From Candidatus Uhrbacteria bacterium (GTDB lineage Bacteria > Patescibacteriota > Patescibacteriia > UBA9934 > GWF2-40-263), in NCBI GenBank assembly GCA_014239775.1, contig JAAZYG010000005.1:6746-70745 (forward strand): a stretch of DNA of 64,000 nt. Direction: 5' to 3'. Each line of letters opens with the position of its first letter. The first letter of the stretch is position 1. Position numbers and translations under genes: made by a program. This document shows positions 3,573 through 47,314 of this stretch, in pieces. A model generated the notes under the pieces. It saw only the letters and a list, made by a program, of their open reading frames with translations, did not search any database and had not been told where the DNA came from.

Positions 3573-5405
3573 ATGACTCTTGAACCGAGGTCATTGTCGC
3601 CAGTTAGAACCTGGGCAAGCATTAACGCGCCTCGCAACATATTACTTCTACTTGTTGGGTGCGAGCATTTAGGTGTACCTAAAAAGGTCATCTTCAATAG
3701 TTTACCTGATAGACTAAAAGGTAAATCGATATCATTAATGAGAAAAGATGAAGATCAAATTACTCTTGCAGAGTATGATGATGTTCTAAGACCTTTAATA
3801 GATCACTTAGGTCACGTGAGTCTACTGAGCGAAATTGGTCATGCATCACCAAAGATTGACTTTGGTTTTGAAACCGTCAAACGTATCGCAGGCACACTTC
3901 CTGGACTCGGTCATTTTGTTAGTCCATGGGTTGCATACAAACAACTCAATGAAGCTGCAAGAGCTTGGAATAATAACAAAATCTGGAAGGCTGATTTAAT
4001 AGATCACAACATGGTTAGGCTTATGTGTACATATAATCCTGCTAGTCCAACCGGACAAACCATCGATCGAATTAAAGACGCAGTTTCACTTTTGTATTTA
4101 ATCAGAGGGATGAATGAAGCTCTTCCAGGAATTTTTCCAGGAAGATACTTGTTGTCTGAAGTTAATTACAGACTAGTCAATCTACCACTAGAACAACTAC
4201 TGCGGACATTGTGTCCAAAAAGTAATATTGAATTTAGTGGAAATGTCTTATACTTCAACAATGAACTCGTTGCAACAAAGGTTTGGCTAAAACCAGACCA
4301 CAGAGGATGGTTCATGGGTGACTACTCACGAACTGAGATTGATGGTGTAATGACAACACCAGCAATCTTAATCTTAAAAGATGTGTGTACACAAGCGACA
4401 GGAAATGTATGTCCTGGTCAAATATTGCCACTAGTTCGTCTAGGTGAAATTTATCAAATCAACGAAGATGTGAGTCAATTTTCACACACAATACTGGACA
4501 TTCGGTGGAACACAACTTGGGCAGATAAAGTAAAAAGTTATCTACCGTTCGTTGGTGGTCATAAAAACTTCCAAAATGAGTTCATTACTGAAAACAGGGC
4601 GGTTGCAGCAACTCAACAAGTTTCGCTTGAAAAACGTAAGACTCAAATTTATACAGCACTTATTTCAGCGATTTATCCTGATAAATCAATGTTTCAATCT
4701 GTTCTTGAAGGTAAAAATCTTACAGTAATAGATGACACTACAGTGTCTTTGTTTGTTGACATTGCAAACTTCTCAAAATGGGCAAACTCCTGTGGAGCCA
4801 ATGAAGTATACAATTTTATGCAGCCCTTTATGACTGGTGTGAATAAAATTGCCTTACGTTGTCATGGTAAGCTGTGTAATTTTACCGGTGATGGATGTGC
4901 AATTAATTGGTTTGGTAAAATAGGACCCAGCAAACAATATTCAGTAAAACGAAGATTGCAATTTGCCATAGATGCATCTCTCTACATTTTGAAACTTGCA
5001 GATAATGCTGGATGTTCTGTACGTGTAGGAATTTCTGTTGGTCAAACAATCACATACACTATTCCTGTAGACAAAAGTGGTATTCAAGCAATGCCTGTCA
5101 CAAATGGAGTAGCAATGAATATGGCCGCAAGAGTGCAGGCTGCAATGAAACCAACACAACAAAAAATGAAATGTTCTGTTGCAGCAATGGATGATAGTGC
5201 AGAAAAAGTTCTTACAGCTGATGGAATCTTAAATATTGCACCATTAAACATAAGGATCATTGGTGTAGTCGAAGAAAAGTCTGATACATTTAGTTTATTC
5301 CAAATCATGCCAACAACAATGACTGAAAAGGACCAAAACTGGATCACACGGACTGGCGCAGACACGTCTATGAATATGCCCACAATCAACTCAAATGAGG
5401 ATTAA
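3573..5405 (+). CDS. class III nucleotidyl cyclase (adenylate/guanylate-cyclase-type catalytic domain) fused to an unassigned ~390-aa N-terminal domain
   Basis: C-terminal ~190 aa carries cyclase-homology-domain blocks: FVDIANFS (metal Asp), FTGDGCAINWF (second Asp), VRVGISVG and GVAMNMAARV (Asn/Arg). ATG at 3573 preferred over TTG at 3561. G+C is above the backbone (43% in the one row counted). Confidence 0.75.
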   Translation: MTLEPRSLSPVRTWASINAPRNILLLLVGCEHLGVPKKVIFNSLPDRLKGKSISLMRKDEDQITLAEYDDVLRPLIDHLGHVSLLSEIGHASPKIDFGFETVKRIAGTLPGLGHFVSPWVAYKQLNEAARAWNNNKIWKADLIDHNMVRLMCTYNPASPTGQTIDRIKDAVSLLYLIRGMNEALPGIFPGRYLLSEVNYRLVNLPLEQLLRTLCPKSNIEFSGNVLYFNNELVATKVWLKPDHRGWFMGDYSRTEIDGVMTTPAILILKDVCTQATGNVCPGQILPLVRLGEIYQINEDVSQFSHTILDIRWNTTWADKVKSYLPFVGGHKNFQNEFITENRAVAATQQVSLEKRKTQIYTALISAIYPDKSMFQSVLEGKNLTVIDDTTVSLFVDIANFSKWANSCGANEVYNFMQPFMTGVNKIALRCHGKLCNFTGDGCAINWFGKIGPSKQYSVKRRLQFAIDASLYILKLADNAGCSVRVGISVGQTITYTIPVDKSGIQAMPVTNGVAMNMAARVQAAMKPTQQKMKCSVAAMDDSAEKVLTADGILNIAPLNIRIIGVVEEKSDTFSLFQIMPTTMTEKDQNWITRTGADTSMNMPTINSNED

Positions 5406-5560: not shown

Positions 5561-5887
5561 GTGATTTTTTCTGAAGTTTTTTATGTTGATTATGACCGAT
5601 CTGTTAAATTCAACCCAACCTTGCACAGTCAATTTGTAAAAAAATTTCTTGCATGGTCAAACCTTATAATTGTCGGTCCGCAGTATGAGCACAAACATCT
5701 GTACAATCACTTCTGTACAGATCATACAGCCCCACCAACATCACAGCTTATAGCTGCTGGTGATTGTACGGGCGATGGACATGTGTGGAGTTGGACAAGT
5801 GTTGGCTTTGGTTTTAAAACACCAAAAGACATCAAACCTCACATACTCAAGGCAATTCAAATGAAGGATGAAGCTTTAGGCTTCTAA
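5561..5887 (+). CDS. hypothetical 108-aa protein, GTG start
   Basis: ORF with AAGGAA 6 nt upstream of GTG 5561. No in-frame ATG near the 5' end and no recognisable motif. It sits between the cyclase terminator and a tRNA. Confidence 0.45.
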   Translation: MIFSEVFYVDYDRSVKFNPTLHSQFVKKFLAWSNLIIVGPQYEHKHLYNHFCTDHTAPPTSQLIAAGDCTGDGHVWSWTSVGFGFKTPKDIKPHILKAIQMKDEALGF

Positions 5888-5948
5888 CACTAAAGCTATG
5901 CTTTACTAAACATACAAACTTTTTGTGTGTTTTTTTATTTACACAATC

Positions 5949-5975
5949 AAAAAAACTACTAATACGTAGTTTTTA
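5949..5975. terminator. bidirectional hairpin terminator
   Basis: AAAAACTAC / GTAGTTTTT stem with a 6-nt loop, between the plus-strand ORF and the minus-strand tRNA-Thr. Confidence 0.6.
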
Positions 5976-5981
5976 AGTAAA

Positions 5982-6057
5982 TGGAGCCGTCACGCGGATT
6001 CGAACCGCGGACCTCATCCTTACCATGGATGCGCTCTACCTACTGAGCTATGACGGC
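5982..6057 (-). tRNA. tRNA-Thr (anticodon GGU), CCA encoded
   Basis: Reverse complement GCCGTCATAGCTCAGTAGGTAGAGCGCATCCATGGTAAGGATGAGGTCCGCGGTTCGAATCCGCGTGACGGCTCCA. Anticodon loop is ATGGTAA. Confidence 0.9.
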
Positions 6058-6067
6058 AATAATAATA

Positions 6068-6877
6068 TTATTCCTCACTTGTTTTTTGAATATATTCATC
6101 CTTTAATTTATAAAACCTACCCTCAAACTCATCAAGTTTTTTATTTTCTGGATTGACCTCCTGCAACAAGGTGATTCCTTTTCTAGCATCTTTTAATGAA
6201 CCAGCTCTAAGAGAAGTTTCAATATAAAAATCTAAATATTTTGGATTTTTAGACCTATTATCGATTGCCTTTTTTAGATAATCTAATGCAGATTTGTAAT
6301 TTAAAGAATCCATCTCCATCTCTGCAAGAGACACCAAAACACTAGCATCATTTGGTGAAATTTTTAATGTAAATTTATAAGTCTCTTTTGCCTGGTCATA
6401 TTTAGAACTCTTTTTATAAAGATCACCCAATCCTTCATATGCATCAACACTTTTTGGATTATGACTAATAATATCTATATAGATTTTTTCTGCATGTACA
6501 ACCTCATCTTTTTTGACTAAATCCTTAGCTTGATCAATTAATCGTCTTATTTCATCTTTATTGTAAGAGTGAACACCTTCTTCAGCTGTACGTTTTAATT
6601 TCTGATAATATTGCTCTAAAGAATATAATTTTTGTACAGCACGTCTACCGTATTTAGACGCAACACGAACAGCTCCAGAAGATGCTTTTACTACATTTCT
6701 AGCAACACCGCTCTTACGTTGTAATTTTTGTAATATAATCTTCTCTTTTACTTTTCGCGCCTTTTCTTTTGGTACTGATTCAATGTTAATAACACGTAAT
6801 TTTGGGATATTACGAACCAAAATAATAGAAATTGTAAACAAACAGAAAATAATTATAGAAACTAATATCCAAACCAT
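6068..6877 (-). CDS. membrane-anchored TPR-repeat protein
   Basis: N-terminal TM helix VWILVSIIIFCLFTISIILV. C-half has TPR-like repeats (AYEGLGDLYKKSSKYDQAKETYKFTLKISPND...). Confidence 0.65.
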   Translation of the reverse strand: MVWILVSIIIFCLFTISIILVRNIPKLRVINIESVPKEKARKVKEKIILQKLQRKSGVARNVVKASSGAVRVASKYGRRAVQKLYSLEQYYQKLKRTAEEGVHSYNKDEIRRLIDQAKDLVKKDEVVHAEKIYIDIISHNPKSVDAYEGLGDLYKKSSKYDQAKETYKFTLKISPNDASVLVSLAEMEMDSLNYKSALDYLKKAIDNRSKNPKYLDFYIETSLRAGSLKDARKGITLLQEVNPENKKLDEFEGRFYKLKDEYIQKTSEE

Positions 6878-6880
6878 ACT

Positions 6881-7654
6881 TTACTCTTGTGCTTCAAGGA
6901 CTTCACTTGCAGCCTCAATCACATCCTTGAATTGATTAATTTTAACACTTGCACCACCAACCAAAACTCCATCAATACTTTTCTCTCTTAATAAAGCATA
7001 TGCATTATCACCATTTACACTACCTCCATACAAAACATTTAATTGATCTTCCTTTATACCAGGAAAGATATCTGACAAAACAGTTTTAATAAACTCATGC
7101 ACCTCTATAACCTGTGCAACATCTGCATTTTTACCAGTACCGATTGCCCAAATGGGTTCATATGCTATAAACAATTTAGCTGAAGATCGTAATCTAATCC
7201 CACCTAATGCACTGGCTATTTGATTTTTTATAATCTCCAAATAACCACCCTCCTCTCTATGTTCAACACTCTCACCAATACACACTATTGGGGTTAAATT
7301 ATTCTCTAAAGCCTTTTTTAATTTCCTATTAACAATTTCATCCGTTTCAGAAAACAAACCCCTTCTTTCTGAATGCCCAATTAATACATGTGTTACACCG
7401 ACCTCATCTAACATTCTTGAAGAAATCTCACCAGTAAATGCACCCTTATCTTCCCATGACATGTTTTGTGCACATAAAGAAACAGATGACCTTGCGATCA
7501 CTTTTCTAACTTCCGACAAAGCAATAAATGAAGGACAAATGATTAAATTAGGAACAACTTTCCTACCCCTCAATGTCAAAAGCGTACCACGAGCCAACGC
7601 AATACTTTCTCTAACTCCCACATTCATCTTCCAATTTCCTATAACTGTTTTCAT
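6881..7654 (-). CDS. tpiA: triosephosphate isomerase
   Basis: Motifs GNWKMN, IGHSERR and YEPIWAIGTGK. Confidence 0.95.
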   Translation of the reverse strand: MKTVIGNWKMNVGVRESIALARGTLLTLRGRKVVPNLIICPSFIALSEVRKVIARSSVSLCAQNMSWEDKGAFTGEISSRMLDEVGVTHVLIGHSERRGLFSETDEIVNRKLKKALENNLTPIVCIGESVEHREEGGYLEIIKNQIASALGGIRLRSSAKLFIAYEPIWAIGTGKNADVAQVIEVHEFIKTVLSDIFPGIKEDQLNVLYGGSVNGDNAYALLREKSIDGVLVGGASVKINQFKDVIEAASEVLEAQE

Positions 7655-8919
7655 ATTTTTGCCTTCCTTATGAACTCCTCCTTAGACTTATAAGGACCTA
7701 TAACAGCAACTGTCATTTGATCTAAATCAAGAATTTCTTTTGCCACATCTTGAATTTCTTCCAAAGTTACTCCATCTATTTTTTTCAAATATGCAGCTGG
7801 TGTTTTAACATCATCTTTAAACAGTGCTTGTGTTGCATACCACGAAGCACGTTGATACGTATCTTCAAGCTGTATTGAAAACTGTCCTTGTATATATGTT
7901 TTCGCATCTACCAATTCTTGCTTTGTAACACCCTTTTTTATAATAGATTTTACCTCTTTTAAAATAGTCTTAACAGCAAGTGGTAACCGCTTTTTGTCCA
8001 AACCAGCCCTAATCATAAAAGTACCAATATCATCATATTGATGACTGTATGCACGTACAAAATATGCTAAGCCCAGTCTTTCTCGTACCTCAATAAAAAG
8101 CCGTGAACTCATGTTGCCACCTAATATCACAGAAAGCAAGGATACAATATGATTCTTTTTTGAATCAATACCATATGTATAAAATCCTAATGCTAATTGA
8201 ATTTGTTCTGTTTTTTTGTATTCAACACAAATTCTTGGTGATTTTTTTGGTTTTGTGATCTTAAACTCTTCAAAATCTTTATCTGACTTTCCTTTTCGAA
8301 CAACTGAAAATTTATTTTCAACCCAAACCTTAGCTTTTTTATTAATATTTCCAGAAACAACAACAACCATATTTGAAGCGCTATAATGCTTCTTATAATA
8401 TTCTAAAATTTCATCTCTTGGCATTTCTTTCATTGTCTTTGGTGTACCTGCTATATTTCGTCCCAACGTATTACCTTTATACATCTCGTCTTCAACAATA
8501 TCCTCAACATGACGCATAGGATTATCCCTATACATGTTAATTTCCTCAATCACCACACCACGCTCACGATCCAATTCTGTTTTATCAAAAACAGAATTAA
8601 ACAACATATCACTTAGAATATCTAAAGCTAATTTTAGGTGAGTCTTGCTAACTTTTACGTAATAACCTGTAACATGCTTATCTGTAAATGCATTAAAATC
8701 AGCACCAATTGAATCTAATTCTCTAGTAATGTCCTGAGTTGTTGGGCGACGTTTTGTGCCTTTAAACAATAAGTGCTCAATAAAATGTGACGCACCGTTT
8801 AGTTTTTTATATTCATACCTTGAACCAACTCCAACCAAAATCATGACCGTTACCGTGTCTGTGCCTTTTGAAGGAGCAAATAAAACTGGTAATGAATTTT
8901 TTAATGTAAATTTTTGCAT
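7651..8919 (-). CDS. M16 family zinc peptidase (pitrilysin-like)
   Basis: Inverted zinc motif HFIEHLLFKGT (HxxEH). Two-domain length. The TGA stop overlaps the tpiA ATG (ATGA). Confidence 0.85.
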   Translation of the reverse strand: MQKFTLKNSLPVLFAPSKGTDTVTVMILVGVGSRYEYKKLNGASHFIEHLLFKGTKRRPTTQDITRELDSIGADFNAFTDKHVTGYYVKVSKTHLKLALDILSDMLFNSVFDKTELDRERGVVIEEINMYRDNPMRHVEDIVEDEMYKGNTLGRNIAGTPKTMKEMPRDEILEYYKKHYSASNMVVVVSGNINKKAKVWVENKFSVVRKGKSDKDFEEFKITKPKKSPRICVEYKKTEQIQLALGFYTYGIDSKKNHIVSLLSVILGGNMSSRLFIEVRERLGLAYFVRAYSHQYDDIGTFMIRAGLDKKRLPLAVKTILKEVKSIIKKGVTKQELVDAKTYIQGQFSIQLEDTYQRASWYATQALFKDDVKTPAAYLKKIDGVTLEEIQDVAKEILDLDQMTVAVIGPYKSKEEFIRKAKI

Positions 8920-37805: not shown

Positions 37806-38174
37806 TTAAATGTACAATAATGAATTAACAAATAAATTAGATAAAAGCAAGCCTGATAATACAGCAGCTGATATACCGAGTACAGCAACAACTCTTTTTG
37901 CTTTAAATGGAAGGTGTTCGCAATTAGAACATCCAGCCATATAAACAACCCTACAAGATACCTCAGGATCTTTTGAGTTTGATTTGATGTCCTTTAATAT
38001 TACCTCTACGTTTGGTTCTACAATAACCTGAGACATAATTTTCTTCGCAGCAGGCTTCTTACGTGCGACTTTTTTTGTTGCTACTTTCTTAGCAGCTACT
38101 TTCTTCGCAGCAGGCTTCTTACGTGCGACTTTTTTTGTTGCTTTTTTGATTGATGTTTTCTTTTTTGTTGGCAT
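37806..38174 (-). CDS. Lys/Ala-rich (histone-H1-like) repeat protein with Cys cluster and C-terminal TM helix
   Basis: N-terminus KKVARKKPAAKKVAAKKVAT x2. Cys cluster CRVVYMAGCSNCEH. Tail VVAVLGISAAVLSGLLL. Confidence 0.55.
   Translation of the reverse strand: MPTKKKTSIKKATKKVARKKPAAKKVAAKKVATKKVARKKPAAKKIMSQVIVEPNVEVILKDIKSNSKDPEVSCRVVYMAGCSNCEHLPFKAKRVVAVLGISAAVLSGLLLSNLFVNSLLYI
38041..38142. repeat. 60-bp-period direct duplication (42-nt identical cores)
   Basis: 38041-38082 is identical to 38101-38142 (TTCTTCGCAGCAGGCTTCTTACGTGCGACTTTTTTTGTTGCT). Confidence 0.9.
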
Positions 38175-38712: not shown

Positions 38713-39759
38713 TCACACCTGAGACACTTCCCACGGAAAACCCTCTCTGCCAAAATGACCGTAAACAGCAGTTTGTCTGTAAATAGATTGTCTTAATCCT
38801 AAACGTTCAACTATGGCCTCTGGTCGAAAATCAAACTTATCTTTTATTAAATTTGTTAAATCTGTTTTTGCACCTCGTGACTTTTCTGACATGCCTATAG
38901 CATGTATGTGAACTGGATCAGCTTGACCCATTGCGTACACAAGATTGATCATTGCACTCTTGCATAACTCTTGCTCAACTAGATATCTAGCGACATAACG
39001 AGCCATATATGCACCAGCCCTATCAACTCTCATAGGATCTTTACCGGATAAAGAAAAATCACCATGTGGAATTAAGCCGCCATACGTATCAACAGCAACT
39101 TTTGATCCACTAACACCGGAATCGGCTCTAAATCCAATAATTGTAAATGGCCCTAATGGATTAATTATAATTTTTAAACCATTATCACCTACAAGCGGCT
39201 CAATTAACCGCTCAAGAAGTGCTGTTTGTACATTTTTTTCAGTTACATTTAAATGATGTGAGGCCAATATTGTAATTGACTTTACTTCATTTTTTTCCAT
39301 TACAATCTGAACCTTTCCATCAGGTCTCAACCATGAAAAAGATGGGTCTATTTTTCTAAGATCATCAATTCTTCGTACAAAATTATGAGCAAATACAACC
39401 GGATGTGGCAACATTTCTCTTGTCTGTGATGTAGCATATCCATTTATAACTACATTATCTGTAACACCATTTTTAACACGCTTCATTTCTTCAGACTGAT
39501 CATCTACATTTACAAAAACCTCTATTTCATCTGTATAACCTATATCTCTATATACATTTTTTGCAAGCTCTCCAATATCAAAATCTGCGTCAGAATTAAC
39601 CTCACCGCCTATCATTAACATACCGTGACTGCCTAGTACATTAATATCTATACTTGCAGTTTTATCACGCTTTATGTATTCATCCACGATCGCATCAGCA
39701 ATTTGATCGCATACCTTGTCTGGATTACCAGACATGACTGATTCAAAAGATTTTCTCAT
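38713..39759 (-). CDS. metK: divergent S-adenosylmethionine synthetase homolog
   Basis: SFESVMSGNPDKVCDQIADAIVD, VDTYGG, SGKDPMRVDRAGAY and AVYGHFGRE align to MetK. Several canonical residues are changed (see finding). Confidence 0.75.
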   Translation of the reverse strand: MRKSFESVMSGNPDKVCDQIADAIVDEYIKRDKTASIDINVLGSHGMLMIGGEVNSDADFDIGELAKNVYRDIGYTDEIEVFVNVDDQSEEMKRVKNGVTDNVVINGYATSQTREMLPHPVVFAHNFVRRIDDLRKIDPSFSWLRPDGKVQIVMEKNEVKSITILASHHLNVTEKNVQTALLERLIEPLVGDNGLKIIINPLGPFTIIGFRADSGVSGSKVAVDTYGGLIPHGDFSLSGKDPMRVDRAGAYMARYVARYLVEQELCKSAMINLVYAMGQADPVHIHAIGMSEKSRGAKTDLTNLIKDKFDFRPEAIVERLGLRQSIYRQTAVYGHFGREGFPWEVSQV

Positions 39760-39846
39760 ATGTGTTAACGAATTTTATCACACTTACATATACACCAAAT
39801 TATTAAGTACACACTTAGTATATACAGTGTTATCCACACTGATATA

Positions 39847-39892
39847 TTGCGTTCGTTTTTTGTTCGGTCTATAATACGAACATAATACGAAC
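39847..39892 (+). promoter_or_regulatory. lexA promoter candidate overlapped by nested inverted repeats (candidate LexA operator)
   Basis: TTGCGT, 17 nt, TATAAT (39870-39875). GTTCG-6-GTTCG-10-CGAAC-6-CGAAC at 39851-39892, symmetric around the -10 hexamer. Confidence 0.5.
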
Positions 39893-39902
39893 ACATAAAC
39901 AT

Positions 39903-40517
39903 ATGCCTTATCTAACAAAGAAACAGACAGAGATACTTCGATACATAAAATCTCATCTGCAAGACAATGGATACGCTCCTTCCTACAGAGAAATCGGTGA
40001 GTATTTTGGTCTTTCTTCCCCAGCCACAATACACTCACACATTCAAACACTTGTTGAAAAAGGAGAAATTCAAATAGGTGAAGAAGGAGAGGCTAGATCA
40101 ATAGAATTGGTTCAATCAGAGCCATTTGCAATGGCTGTAATGCTTCCAATGGCAGGGCTTATTACCGCTGGAACACCAATAGAAGCTGTTGAACAAAATG
40201 AAGCGATGGCTGTACCTGCACAATTTGTAGTAGATGGAGCAAATTCCTATGTCCTACAAGTAAAAGGCAGGTCCATGATTGAAGATGGGATATTAGATGG
40301 AGATTTTGTTGTAATAGAAAGAAACCCATCTCCAAAAAATGGAGAAGTTGTTGTGGCATTATTAGATAATGCATACGCAACACTCAAACGATTCTACAGA
40401 GAAAAAAACCAAATTAGATTACAACCAGCAAATAGCTCAATGGATCCAATCTATGTACAAGATTGCATAATACAAGGAGTTGTACGTGCTGTAATAAGAA
40501 AATTTCAACCTGTGTAG
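39903..40517 (+). CDS. lexA: LexA repressor
   Basis: N-terminal wHTH (PSYREIGEYFGLSSPATIHSHIQTL), AG cleavage region, and S24 peptidase blocks VKGRSMIEDGI ... ATLKRF. Confidence 0.9.
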   Translation: MPYLTKKQTEILRYIKSHLQDNGYAPSYREIGEYFGLSSPATIHSHIQTLVEKGEIQIGEEGEARSIELVQSEPFAMAVMLPMAGLITAGTPIEAVEQNEAMAVPAQFVVDGANSYVLQVKGRSMIEDGILDGDFVVIERNPSPKNGEVVVALLDNAYATLKRFYREKNQIRLQPANSSMDPIYVQDCIIQGVVRAVIRKFQPV

Positions 40518-40789
40518 CATTAAATAAAAAATGAACTGTCGTCCGGCAAGACAATAACAGTTCATTTAACAAAACCACATACTATAAATAAAAATATGTA
40601 TACTAGCGGCTTTTAAATTATAAATAAAAAAAAATTAAATTTCAAATATGTCTACCCTATCAATAAAGTACTATCCAGCCACATTGTCATACCTAACACA
40701 CAGACGTGACAGACAGTTCTCAAAATCAATGAAACTTATAAAAATACGAGCTAGTAGAAGACAAATAAAAAAAATAATCCGAAGTATAT

Positions 40790-41038
40790 ATGCATGAAGT
40801 AATAAATGACCCAATTGATGTAATGGTTTCTTTTACTGAAAATAAAGTTATACCAAAACTATTTAAATGGAATAAACGAAATTATAAAATAGAAACTATT
40901 AATCTTGTGCACACAAAAATGGAAGGAAAGAAAAAAATATTCTACTTTTCCGTTTCTGACTTAACAAATTATTTTAAATTAAAACTAGATACAGATTGCC
41001 TAGAATGGCACTTAATCGAATTATACACAGATGGATAA
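40790..41038 (+). CDS. hypothetical 82-aa protein immediately upstream of dinB
   Basis: ORF MHEVINDPIDVMVSFTENKVIPKLFKWNKRNYKIETINL... lies 28 nt before dinB. Its position suggests an accessory factor of the Y-family polymerase. Confidence 0.5.
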   Translation: MHEVINDPIDVMVSFTENKVIPKLFKWNKRNYKIETINLVHTKMEGKKKIFYFSVSDLTNYFKLKLDTDCLEWHLIELYTDG

Positions 41039-41065: not shown

Positions 41066-42271
41066 ATGAATAAAATTATCATGCACATTGATATGAATGC
41101 ATATTTTGCATCAGTAGAACAACAAGCTAATCCTTTTTTAAGAAATAAACCAATTGGTATTATTGGTAAAAATGAAAAAAGGTCCGTAATATCAGCAGCA
41201 TCATATCAAGCCAAACAACTTGGTGTTAAAACAGCAATGTCTACTTGGCAAGCAAAAAACATTTGCCCATCAATAATCTTATATCCGGGAGATCCTGATA
41301 AATATAAATACGTAATGAATAAATTTAATAATATCTTTAGTGAGTTTACAGATAAAATAGAGATATTTAGCATTGATGAAAGTTTTTTAGATATTACAGA
41401 TACTGCAGAAGATTATTTTGGGGCAATATTCCTAGCACAAACAATCAGAGAGCGCCTAAAAGAAGAATTAGGTGATTACATAACAGCATCTATAGGAATA
41501 AGCTCAAATAAACTAATGTCAAAATTATCATCAGAAAAAGTTAAACCAAATGGAATAACAGTTACAAGACCAAAAAATATAAAAAAAGTACTATTTAGCT
41601 CTGAACTTGAAGATTTGTGTGGATTAGGTAAAAACACAAAGCATAAATTAAATGAAATGGGTATATATAATTTTGAACAACTTAGCAAAACACCACTTTG
41701 GACCTTAAAAAAAGAATTTAAAAGCAAAGGATTATGGCTTTATAATTCCTCAAATGGAATAAAAAATGATGCTGATATAGAACCTGAAAATAATTCTGAA
41801 CAAAAATCAATAAGTAACACCAACACAATGCAGATAGATACACTTGATGAAAAAATATTAAAACAAAATTTATCTAAATTATCTGAAAAAACTGCATACA
41901 AATTAAGATCTATCAATGCAACATCTAAAACTCTAGTGCTAAAAATTAGGTTTGATGATTTTTCTAATTTTACACATCAAATAACCCTAAACAAAGGGAC
42001 TAATGATGGAATTATTATATTTAAAAATACATGGAACATGCTTTCTAAAAAAATAAATAATTCAAAAAAAATACGCCAAATAGGCATATCTGCAAAATCT
42101 CTACTTACGGGACAATGCCAACAATCAATATTTAAAAAGGATAGAAAAAATGAATCCGCACTTAATGCACTAGACAGTCTTCAAAAAAAATATGGAAAAA
42201 ACACATGGAAACGTGCATTAATTAATTCTACACAACTAAGTACAGTATCTAGTGGTTTCTATCATAAATAA
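41066..42271 (+). CDS. dinB: DNA polymerase IV (Y-family)
   Basis: IMHIDMNAYFASVEQ and FSIDESFLDIT (catalytic Asp/Glu). Little-finger-length C-terminus. Confidence 0.9.
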   Translation: MNKIIMHIDMNAYFASVEQQANPFLRNKPIGIIGKNEKRSVISAASYQAKQLGVKTAMSTWQAKNICPSIILYPGDPDKYKYVMNKFNNIFSEFTDKIEIFSIDESFLDITDTAEDYFGAIFLAQTIRERLKEELGDYITASIGISSNKLMSKLSSEKVKPNGITVTRPKNIKKVLFSSELEDLCGLGKNTKHKLNEMGIYNFEQLSKTPLWTLKKEFKSKGLWLYNSSNGIKNDADIEPENNSEQKSISNTNTMQIDTLDEKILKQNLSKLSEKTAYKLRSINATSKTLVLKIRFDDFSNFTHQITLNKGTNDGIIIFKNTWNMLSKKINNSKKIRQIGISAKSLLTGQCQQSIFKKDRKNESALNALDSLQKKYGKNTWKRALINSTQLSTVSSGFYHK

Positions 42272-46076: not shown

Positions 46077-46098
46077 ATAAAAAAAGCCCGTTTGGGCT
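46077..46098 (-). terminator. intrinsic terminator of the 405-aa orphan gene
   Basis: AGCCC / GGGCT stem, loop GTTT, overlapping the TAG stop. U-run on the minus RNA (A-run 46077-46085). Confidence 0.65.
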
Positions 46099-47314
46099 AA
46101 AAGATTGAACAAGCGTATTTTAATTGCTTATATAACTCCTTAAGATTAAGTGAACTTTTACAAAACTCTGACTTAACAAGCACCAAACGCCCAATCACAG
46201 ACTCAAGGATTTGATGTCTGAAACCCTCATCAAGACGCTGTCCTGTAAACACATCTGCTCGAGTCAATACATCATACACACCAACAAGACGTTTATGTAT
46301 AAATTCAATTCTTTGACTTGAAATAACTTGTTTTTGATTTTGATACCATGCAACAATCAATAAAATTTCCTCAAGAACCCAATGTTGTTGAAGTAAAATC
46401 ATAGATCTATATACTCGCCTCAAAGCATCGCCAGCAGACGTCATCATTGATGCGTTCAATTGATCAGCAGCACTCGACATTAAATGCGATGCTTCCTGCA
46501 AATCCAACACAACATAACTCAAAGAACGTTTAAATGGTCGTATAGAAATCTGATGCACCTCATTAGAATAACAATCAATATTTTCTACAGCCTTGCGCAC
46601 CAAACTATTAGTTCTTGAGTGACCAAATAGTTCATTCGAGTTCAATAATTCCATGACATATGAGCGTATACTAATGCATTTTTCATGTAATTGAGCAAGA
46701 TAAACCTCCAAAACGACTGCCCTGTGCTCCATTATTCTTCCAACACCACGCAGACTATGAATGGCCTGTAAATATTCACGTGATCTTTTTAAAATTTTAG
46801 GACCAATCTCTCTACCAGATACTGAGCTGTTATGTACAACTAAATCTAAATCTAGTTGTACTGGATACCAAATAAAACCCACACCATCTTCGGAACACAC
46901 ATTAGATAAAATCCAGGACATATTTTCTAAATCAAAATTAGATCCTGATAAATGCTTTACTTCATGATGAGACAACAAATGATATTTCGGATTAATACGA
47001 CTATATGCTCGTCTTAAATCATTTATTGATCTAAACTGTTGAAAAACATGATCTTGCCTTAATGCTAAATTCTGTTTAACCCTTGCGGTTAGCCCCATGT
47101 TCCTACTTAAAATATGACCAACAAACACACCACCAACATTCTCTCTTGCAACATACAAAGTGTTATTAACGAGAATTTCAAGTTTAATATTTTCTATTAA
47201 AGCAGGTTCTTTTTTATTAGAACCTTTAGCTGATGCCATTATCGTTAAATCACGACGTATAATTACCGGATTGCTTAAATTAGGCCAAACAACCCTAGGT
47301 TCACTTTTTGTCAA
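46097..47314 (-). CDS. orphan 405-aa predicted helical protein, TTG start
   Basis: RBS GGAGGTG (47328-47322) upstream of TTG 47314. It has its own promoter candidate, a 5'-UTR hairpin (47335-47357) and a terminator. One counted row is 45% G+C. No motif recognised. Confidence 0.6.
   Translation of the reverse strand: MTKSEPRVVWPNLSNPVIIRRDLTIMASAKGSNKKEPALIENIKLEILVNNTLYVARENVGGVFVGHILSRNMGLTARVKQNLALRQDHVFQQFRSINDLRRAYSRINPKYHLLSHHEVKHLSGSNFDLENMSWILSNVCSEDGVGFIWYPVQLDLDLVVHNSSVSGREIGPKILKRSREYLQAIHSLRGVGRIMEHRAVVLEVYLAQLHEKCISIRSYVMELLNSNELFGHSRTNSLVRKAVENIDCYSNEVHQISIRPFKRSLSYVVLDLQEASHLMSSAADQLNASMMTSAGDALRRVYRSMILLQQHWVLEEILLIVAWYQNQKQVISSQRIEFIHKRLVGVYDVLTRADVFTGQRLDEGFRHQILESVIGRLVLVKSEFCKSSLNLKELYKQLKYACSIF

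Follow-up and report, generated by a model that had tools for sequence, protein, structure and literature searches.

A probable pair of direct-repeat LexA boxes brackets the -10 hexamer of the lexA promoter in an Uhrbacteria-like member of the Patescibacteria

Results

Gene content of the lexA locus

The window analyzed here, by which we mean the whole 64-kb stretch of DNA, has a GC content of 34% and contains a lexA gene at 39903-40517 on the forward strand. Its 204-aa product combines a winged-helix DNA-binding domain with an S24 self-cleaving peptidase domain, as indicated by Pfam matches to LexA_DNA_bind (5e-19) and Peptidase_S24 (3e-30), and is assigned to the NCBIfam equivalog TIGR00498 with 183.9 bits against a cut-off of 110.95. 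In an alignment to the solved LexA structures 3k2z and 8s7g, both the Ala89-Gly90 cleavage site and the Ser124/Lys162 dyad are intact. The nearest LexA relatives, which share 74-80% identity with this protein, are encoded by Candidatus Uhrbacteria and other Patescibacteria genomes. The relatives, the TIGR00498 assignment and the preserved cleavage residues identify the host as a member of the Patescibacteria that encodes a canonical self-cleaving LexA.

Upstream of lexA and divergent from it lies metK (38713-39759), which leaves an intergenic region of 143 bp. A separate reading frame at 37806-38174 on the reverse strand encodes a small Lys/Ala-rich protein made of repeated KKVARKKPAAKK units followed by a hydrophobic C-terminal segment; its match to the histone H1-like nucleoprotein HC2 (PF07382) is weak and below threshold (34.5 bits versus a cut-off of 40). 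Directly 3′ of the lexA stop codon, a stem-loop at 40529-40567 on the forward strand (-13.1 kcal/mol, z = -5.0) is followed by a short T-run. The terminator scanner made no call on this stem-loop, which may serve as a weak or leaky terminator setting the ratio of lexA to dinB expression.

Two further forward-strand genes follow. The first, orf82 (40790-41038, 82 aa), has no Pfam or NCBIfam match and precedes dinB across Patescibacteria. The second is dinB itself (41066-42271), which encodes the Y-family DNA polymerase IV (Pfam IMS and IMS_C; NF002677 at 291 bits versus a cut-off of 256) and is probably the SOS effector of the lexA cluster. No recA gene is present in the 64-kb window; an open reading frame at 46097-47314 that had been suspected to be recA gave no Pfam match and was set aside.

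We found 34 homologues of orf82 in 32 loci, 28 of which are genome loci where orf82 follows lexA immediately and in the same direction. Examples are located at 4823-5071 in L062, 930-1151 on the reverse strand in L177, 4079-4327 in L008 and 1631-1879 in L046; in the last of these loci an IS200-like transposase gene (PF01797) separates lexA from orf82. An alignment of five orf82 sequences contains 14 invariant columns, including F15, P22, N38-L39, G46 and W73. In many Patescibacteria, orf82 is found immediately 5′ of the Pol IV gene, and its product may assist the translesion polymerase, itself SOS-regulated, as an accessory factor.

An array of four pentamers overlaps the lexA promoter

The intergenic region upstream of lexA carries GTTCG at 39851-39855 and 39862-39866, and CGAAC at 39877-39881 and 39888-39892. 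A preliminary description of this DNA had presented the four pentamers as a nested inverted repeat with spacers of 6, 10 and 6 nt, and all three spacings are confirmed by the sequence. The span given there, 39847-39892, has the correct end, while the array proper occupies 39851-39892 and the earlier start takes in a -35-like hexamer. Likewise, the 11-bp periodicity ascribed to the array holds inside each half (starts at 39851/39862 and 39877/39888) and breaks down across the center, where the step is 15 bp. A perfect TATAAT lies inside the array, with its last base 28 nt from the A of the lexA ATG (39903), as described, and the ATG lies 11 nt beyond the end of the array. The complete 42-nt pattern matches the window only once even when three mismatches are allowed, and none of 100 dinucleotide-preserving shuffles contained a match.

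The array can be read as two copies of one direct repeat, GTTCG-N6-GTTCG, a spacing that is one and the same as GTTC-N7-GTTC. Two same-orientation GTTC tetramers exactly 7 nt apart occupy 39851-39865 on the forward strand and 39878-39892 on the reverse strand, and these are two of only three GTTC-N7-GTTC sites in the entire 64 kb. When the window was scored with a weight matrix built from orthologous lexA-upstream sites, the distal box, GTTCGTTTTTTGTTCG at 39851-39866 on the forward strand, scored 30.6 bits and the proximal box, GTTCGTATTATGTTCG at 39877-39892 on the reverse strand, scored 23.3 bits; the next best position in the window scored 8.1 bits.

Both boxes are intimately associated with promoter elements. 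The -35-like hexamer TTGCGT (39847-39852, forward strand) matches TTGACA at three of six positions and overlaps the first pentamer; in orthologues, TTGC or TTGAC occupies the -35 position and directly abuts the first GTTCG. The -10 hexamer TATAAT (39870-39875, forward strand) corresponds to TATAAT, TAGAAT or TATCAT in orthologues. The distal box fills the 17-bp spacer between the -35 and -10 hexamers, and the proximal box, an opposite-strand copy of the direct repeat, is placed between the -10 hexamer and the ATG, over the expected transcription start; the same placement relative to the promoter is seen in orthologues. The lexA promoter escaped a scanner for consensus promoters, because the -35 hexamer matches at only three of six positions, and our promoter assignment is based on the orthologue alignment and not on that scanner.

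The direct repeat is conserved upstream of lexA across Patescibacteria

We read the upstream regions of 80 lexA loci drawn from one-genome-per-species collections. Close relatives keep the whole layout, which consists of TTATCCACA, about 12 nt, and then TTGC-GTTCGgtttttGTTCG, 10 nt containing the -10 hexamer, and CGAACataaNNCGAAC. More distant Patescibacteria carry TTGAC-GTTCGGTTTTTGTTCGG-TATAAT alone, with one direct repeat filling the promoter spacer, and lack the proximal inverted box. The consensus is thereby extended to GTTCG-GTTTTT-GTTCG-G, with a T-rich spacer. In histograms of tetramer spacing compiled from 81 lexA upstream regions, N7 was the sole peak, with 38 occurrences of GTTC..GTTC and 19 of GAAC..GAAC.

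Of the 77 loci that could be tested, 61 had a box scoring 12 bits or more in the 600 bp that precede lexA. This result backs the earlier proposal of an autoregulatory operator overlapping the lexA promoter and answers the check on conservation upstream of lexA orthologues that accompanied it. A single box, in the forward orientation in every case, was found at 42 of the 77 loci, and an inverted pair like that of the window at 19, all of them close Uhrbacteria-like relatives. The remaining 16 loci, which had no box by this threshold, belong to the most divergent LexAs (at most 57% identity), and the motif there has drifted, for example to TTCGGGTTTTCTTTGG.

In some lineages, the LexA-boxed promoter is separated from lexA by an inserted gene of the 23S rRNA intervening-sequence protein family. 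In L014, this gene occupies 2568-2939 (PF05635), and in L146 a gene of the same family comes after a site at 8704 (reverse-complement coordinates).

Boxes at promoters other than that of lexA

The weight-matrix scan of the window detected no box upstream of dinB, uvrD/pcrA, nth or xseA and none elsewhere above 8.1 bits; within 40518-40800, the region upstream of orf82-dinB, no position scored above 0 bits. At loci where orf82, with or without dinB, is detached from lexA, strong boxes were present within promoter-like surroundings, scoring 23.5 bits in L062 (4705-4724), 24.0 in L065 (5653-5672), 25.3 in L099 and 31.8 in L177. The 28 orf82 copies adjoining lexA have no strong box, and only that of L008 has a weak site, of 17.8 bits. 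The occurrence upstream of DNA-damage genes that the preliminary description had called for is thus found at dinB/Pol IV in other Patescibacteria, with none in the window. The lack of a strong box at adjacent orf82-dinB units implies co-transcription or read-through from lexA, also in the window, where dinB is probably either transcribed by read-through from the lexA promoter or not under LexA control. Boxes at lexA and at detached orf82-dinB units would fit a small SOS regulon.

We also scanned a metagenome collection for the 16-mer GTTCG-N-TTTTTGTTCG, for which matches in promoter context are the informative ones. Among the matches listed, most were on unrelated higher-GC contigs. Six of the listed matches were flanked by TTGAC and TATA and followed by lexA (L082, L134, L160, L166, L187 and L191), and two with the same flanks were followed by orf82 (L177) or by a small open reading frame and DinB (L099).

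Among the matches listed, the 16-mer GTTCGCTTTTTGTTCG also occurred in non-Patescibacteria contigs of higher GC content (0.52-0.55). In L096, L100 and L147, its surroundings resemble a promoter, TTGAC-site-CCTATGAT, and open reading frames of about 206-227 aa follow; the one tested, from L147, had no Pfam match. In L091, the 16-mer at 4906-4921 lies upstream of a cassette with an ImuB-like Y-family polymerase (IMS domains; open reading frame 5657-7171). The higher-GC sites probably represent LexA boxes of the GTTC-N7-GTTC type that belong to other phyla. In L121 (944-968), TTATCCACA comes straight after a perfect direct-repeat box and precedes an IS481-like transposase gene with an rve integrase core (1028-2074); this would represent either an insertion sequence that landed behind a lexA-type promoter or a transposase under SOS control.

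The direct-repeat boxes were assigned to LexA by genomic association and analogy, and an alternative reading is that another regulator binds the direct repeat, whose presence at lexA and dinB promoters would then be a coincidence. We regard this as unlikely. A motif kept at lexA and at a translesion polymerase operon throughout a superphylum is what classically marks a LexA box, the tetramer and its spacing are identical to those of a proven LexA box, and GTTCG is a LexA half-site in Gram-positive bacteria as well.

The inverted symmetry of the array

LexA dimers classically bind palindromes. The inverted layout could itself be the binding unit, formed by the outward-facing inner pair GTTCG-N10-CGAAC and/or the outer pair, in which case the array would be a new palindromic operator that arose from the Gram-positive box by a swap of half-sites. 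The perfect symmetry of the four pentamers about TATAAT and the constant inner spacing in 15 close relatives and the window speak for such a unit, as does the classical preference of LexA dimers. The constant spacing in close relatives is, however, explained by the -10 hexamer, which must fit between the boxes, and it does not extend to other loci. The inner GTTC-to-GAAC gap, 12 nt in the 15 relatives and the window, is 17 nt in L011 and 20 nt in L044; the metagenome locus L190 has 18 nt between its two 16-nt boxes compared with 10 in the window, and the metagenome locus L146 carries two boxes in the same orientation, in tandem. The N7 spacing is constant in all of these. Moreover, the 42 single-box loci and the detached dinB-operon promoters make do with a single direct repeat, and a scan of the window for GTTCG-N10-CGAAC, as had been suggested, returned the array as its sole match.

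In the comparison of lexA loci, GTTCG-N10-CGAAC thus failed as a conserved and necessary unit, contrary to the proposal in the preliminary description, and we consider it very unlikely that the inverted repeat is what LexA recognizes. The fixed N7, the existence of single-repeat loci and the variable distance from box to box show that it is the direct repeat that functions as a unit, and the array looks like a nested palindrome because its second box is inverted relative to the first. We read the nested inverted repeat as the outcome of a second box having been added in reverse orientation in the Uhrbacteria-like clade.

The symmetry might also have been selected for a structure, either a DNA cruciform or an RNA hairpin acting as an attenuator or processing signal, and the 54-nt region does fold as single-stranded DNA at -10.3 kcal/mol (z = -4.2). 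Selection on pairing predicts covariation between the arms, which is absent: no compensatory change was found among 14 distinct arm pairs, and variable positions match in 38 of 70 cells compared with 36.1 for shuffled partners, a level reached by 787 of 5000 shuffles. Position 10 of the spacer is consistently non-complementary (T versus A), and most lineages lack the second arm altogether. An RNA hairpin is further contradicted by the location of the distal arm upstream of the -10 hexamer, where it would not be transcribed. On these grounds we rejected selection for a hairpin or cruciform as highly improbable. Finally, the pentamers might have come together by chance in AT-rich intergenic DNA, as the small size of the element might suggest. 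This is a negligible prospect given the empty shuffles at three allowed mismatches and the conservation of the element in dozens of species between which the rest of the intergenic sequence cannot be aligned.

A DnaA-box 9-mer accompanies lexA promoters

The 9-mer TTATCCACA, which is the DnaA-box consensus (PMC8203912), occurs as an exact copy at 39830-39838 on the forward strand, 8 bp upstream of the -35-like hexamer. Between -200 and +20 of lexA, we counted 37 exact copies in 36 of the 80 loci, where 0.65 would be expected (Poisson P ~5e-51). When one mismatch was allowed, 52 of 74 upstream regions carried the 9-mer, compared with 5 of 71 control regions. In an alignment of 42 copies, the 9-mer is invariant and the flanks are almost unconserved, which marks it as a discrete core. 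The copies take one of two stereotyped positions. Those in forward orientation precede the first base of the direct repeat by 20-23 bp and lie about 8 bp ahead of the -35 hexamer; those in reverse orientation follow that base by 36-46 bp and lie just past the -10 hexamer.

Loci with TTATCCACA near the lexA promoter fall among L001-L051, L074 and the metagenome loci, and the 9-mer recurs at the independent metagenome lexA promoters of L082, L134, L146, L187, L190 and L191. In L062 and L065, where orf82-dinB is detached, its promoter likewise has a one-mismatch copy, which precedes the LexA box by 17 bp. The two other exact copies in the window were dismissed, as they lie inside coding sequence, one in phosphoglycerate kinase (L-S-T-G-G) and the other in PAP2.

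It is nearly certain that the 9-mer beside lexA is a selected element, and DnaA may bind it at 39830-39838. Dual control by DnaA and LexA has been described for uvrB and recN of E. coli (PMC6015884, reviewed in PMC8203912). The E. coli promoters and those studied here have in common a DnaA-box consensus beside LexA boxes in one promoter region; they differ in that the E. coli targets are uvrB and recN, whereas the target here is lexA itself, across a superphylum, with DnaA as the presumed ligand. In the literature searched, we found no such link between a DnaA box and a lexA promoter. The joint claim that DnaA binds TTATCCACA at lexA promoters, that this binding has regulatory meaning and that it has not been described before is put forward tentatively, as possible rather than probable. 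Under this proposal, lexA promoters across Patescibacteria would take two inputs, a direct-repeat LexA box and a DnaA box. If DnaA does bind there, SOS repressor levels in these reduced, regulator-poor genomes would be tuned directly by the replication initiator, and replication status would be coupled to the SOS threshold.

Discussion

A probable two-box operator for lexA

The array upstream of lexA is very probably an operator composed of two separate direct-repeat LexA boxes, through which lexA is autoregulated in this Uhrbacteria-like member of the Patescibacteria. In the mechanism that we propose, each GTTCG-N6-GTTCG box would be bound by one LexA dimer, so that two dimers would be the natural stoichiometry of the two-box operator. 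The distal box fills the spacer between the -35-like TTGCGT and TATAAT, and the proximal box would cover the expected transcription start, about 7 nt past the -10 hexamer, near 39882. With both boxes occupied, RNA polymerase would be excluded from the lexA promoter. Upon DNA damage, RecA-stimulated self-cleavage of LexA at Ala89-Gly90, involving Ser124/Lys162, would relieve repression and render the gene inducible.

The centers of the two boxes are 26 bp apart, or about 2.5 helical turns. At this offset, one dimer would face away from the other across the helix, so that the -10 hexamer is more likely to be bracketed sterically than bound over by two dimers cooperating simply side by side. That the gaps differ among loci (12, 17, 18 and 20 nt) and that the boxes of L146 stand in tandem indicate that the boxes are independent of each other.

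The value of these findings lies mostly in annotation, since for an uncultured Uhrbacteria-like bacterium they would define both the promoter and the operator of lexA. They also indicate that the right pattern for searching the SOS regulon of this bacterium is GTTCG-N6-GTTCG rather than GTTCG-N10-CGAAC, and that this regulon is very small and centered on lexA and the orf82-Pol IV unit. The two-box layout flanking the -10 hexamer is confined to the Uhrbacteria-like clade and is a minor variation. The conserved DnaA box at lexA promoters and the small orf82 family paired with Pol IV are possibly the more useful leads.

Comparison with known LexA boxes

The SOS box of Gram-positive bacteria, or Cheo box, is CGAAC-N4-GTTCG in Bacillus subtilis and Staphylococcus aureus (PMC9578287). 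The pentameric half-site GTTCG/CGAAC is common to this box and to the array described here, but in the Cheo box it forms a palindrome around 4 nt, whereas in the Patescibacteria element it is repeated directly, with 6 nt in between. A search for the Cheo box gave no match near lexA with at most one mismatch, and likewise none at the lexA promoter with at most two; the matches found were at chance level (12 versus 7.9 expected). The shared half-site suggests that each winged-helix domain would read the same bases as in the Cheo box.

The GTTC-N7-GTTC arrangement is the experimentally established direct-repeat LexA box of Alphaproteobacteria (PMC8565304; PMC9578287), with hosts that include Rhodobacter, Rhizobium and Caulobacter (da Rocha et al., 2008, as listed in PMC9578287). 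The geometry of GTTC-N7-GTTC is thus not a new one, and two direct-repeat boxes of a known type take the place of the non-canonical geometry inferred in the preliminary description. The boxes of the two groups agree in the tetramer, the 7-nt spacing, the direct-repeat organization and the placement at lexA and translesion-polymerase promoters. They differ in that the host here is Uhrbacteria-like, with 34% GC, and in that the consensus is extended to GTTCG-GTTTTT-GTTCG-G, with a T-rich spacer. The GTTCG half-site thus builds palindromes in Firmicutes but direct repeats both here and in Alphaproteobacteria, which bears on how operator geometry changes during the evolution of a dimeric repressor with flexible linkers.

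Within the Patescibacteria, a study by Sanchez-Osuna, Barbe and Erill (Environ Microbiol 2017, 19:3465) reportedly analyzed the SOS network and included EMSA on a Patescibacteria LexA. A later paper, PMC7739468, cites that study (PMID 28618189) among cases in which LexA has evolved toward a direct repeat. As far as the mention in PMC7739468 goes, the motif of 2017 and the element described here agree in superphylum, regulator and direct-repeat type, and the window element is almost certainly an instance of that motif. The direct-repeat operator upstream of lexA is hence of a known type, and its inverted two-box layout is a clade-level variation of the Uhrbacteria-like Patescibacteria.
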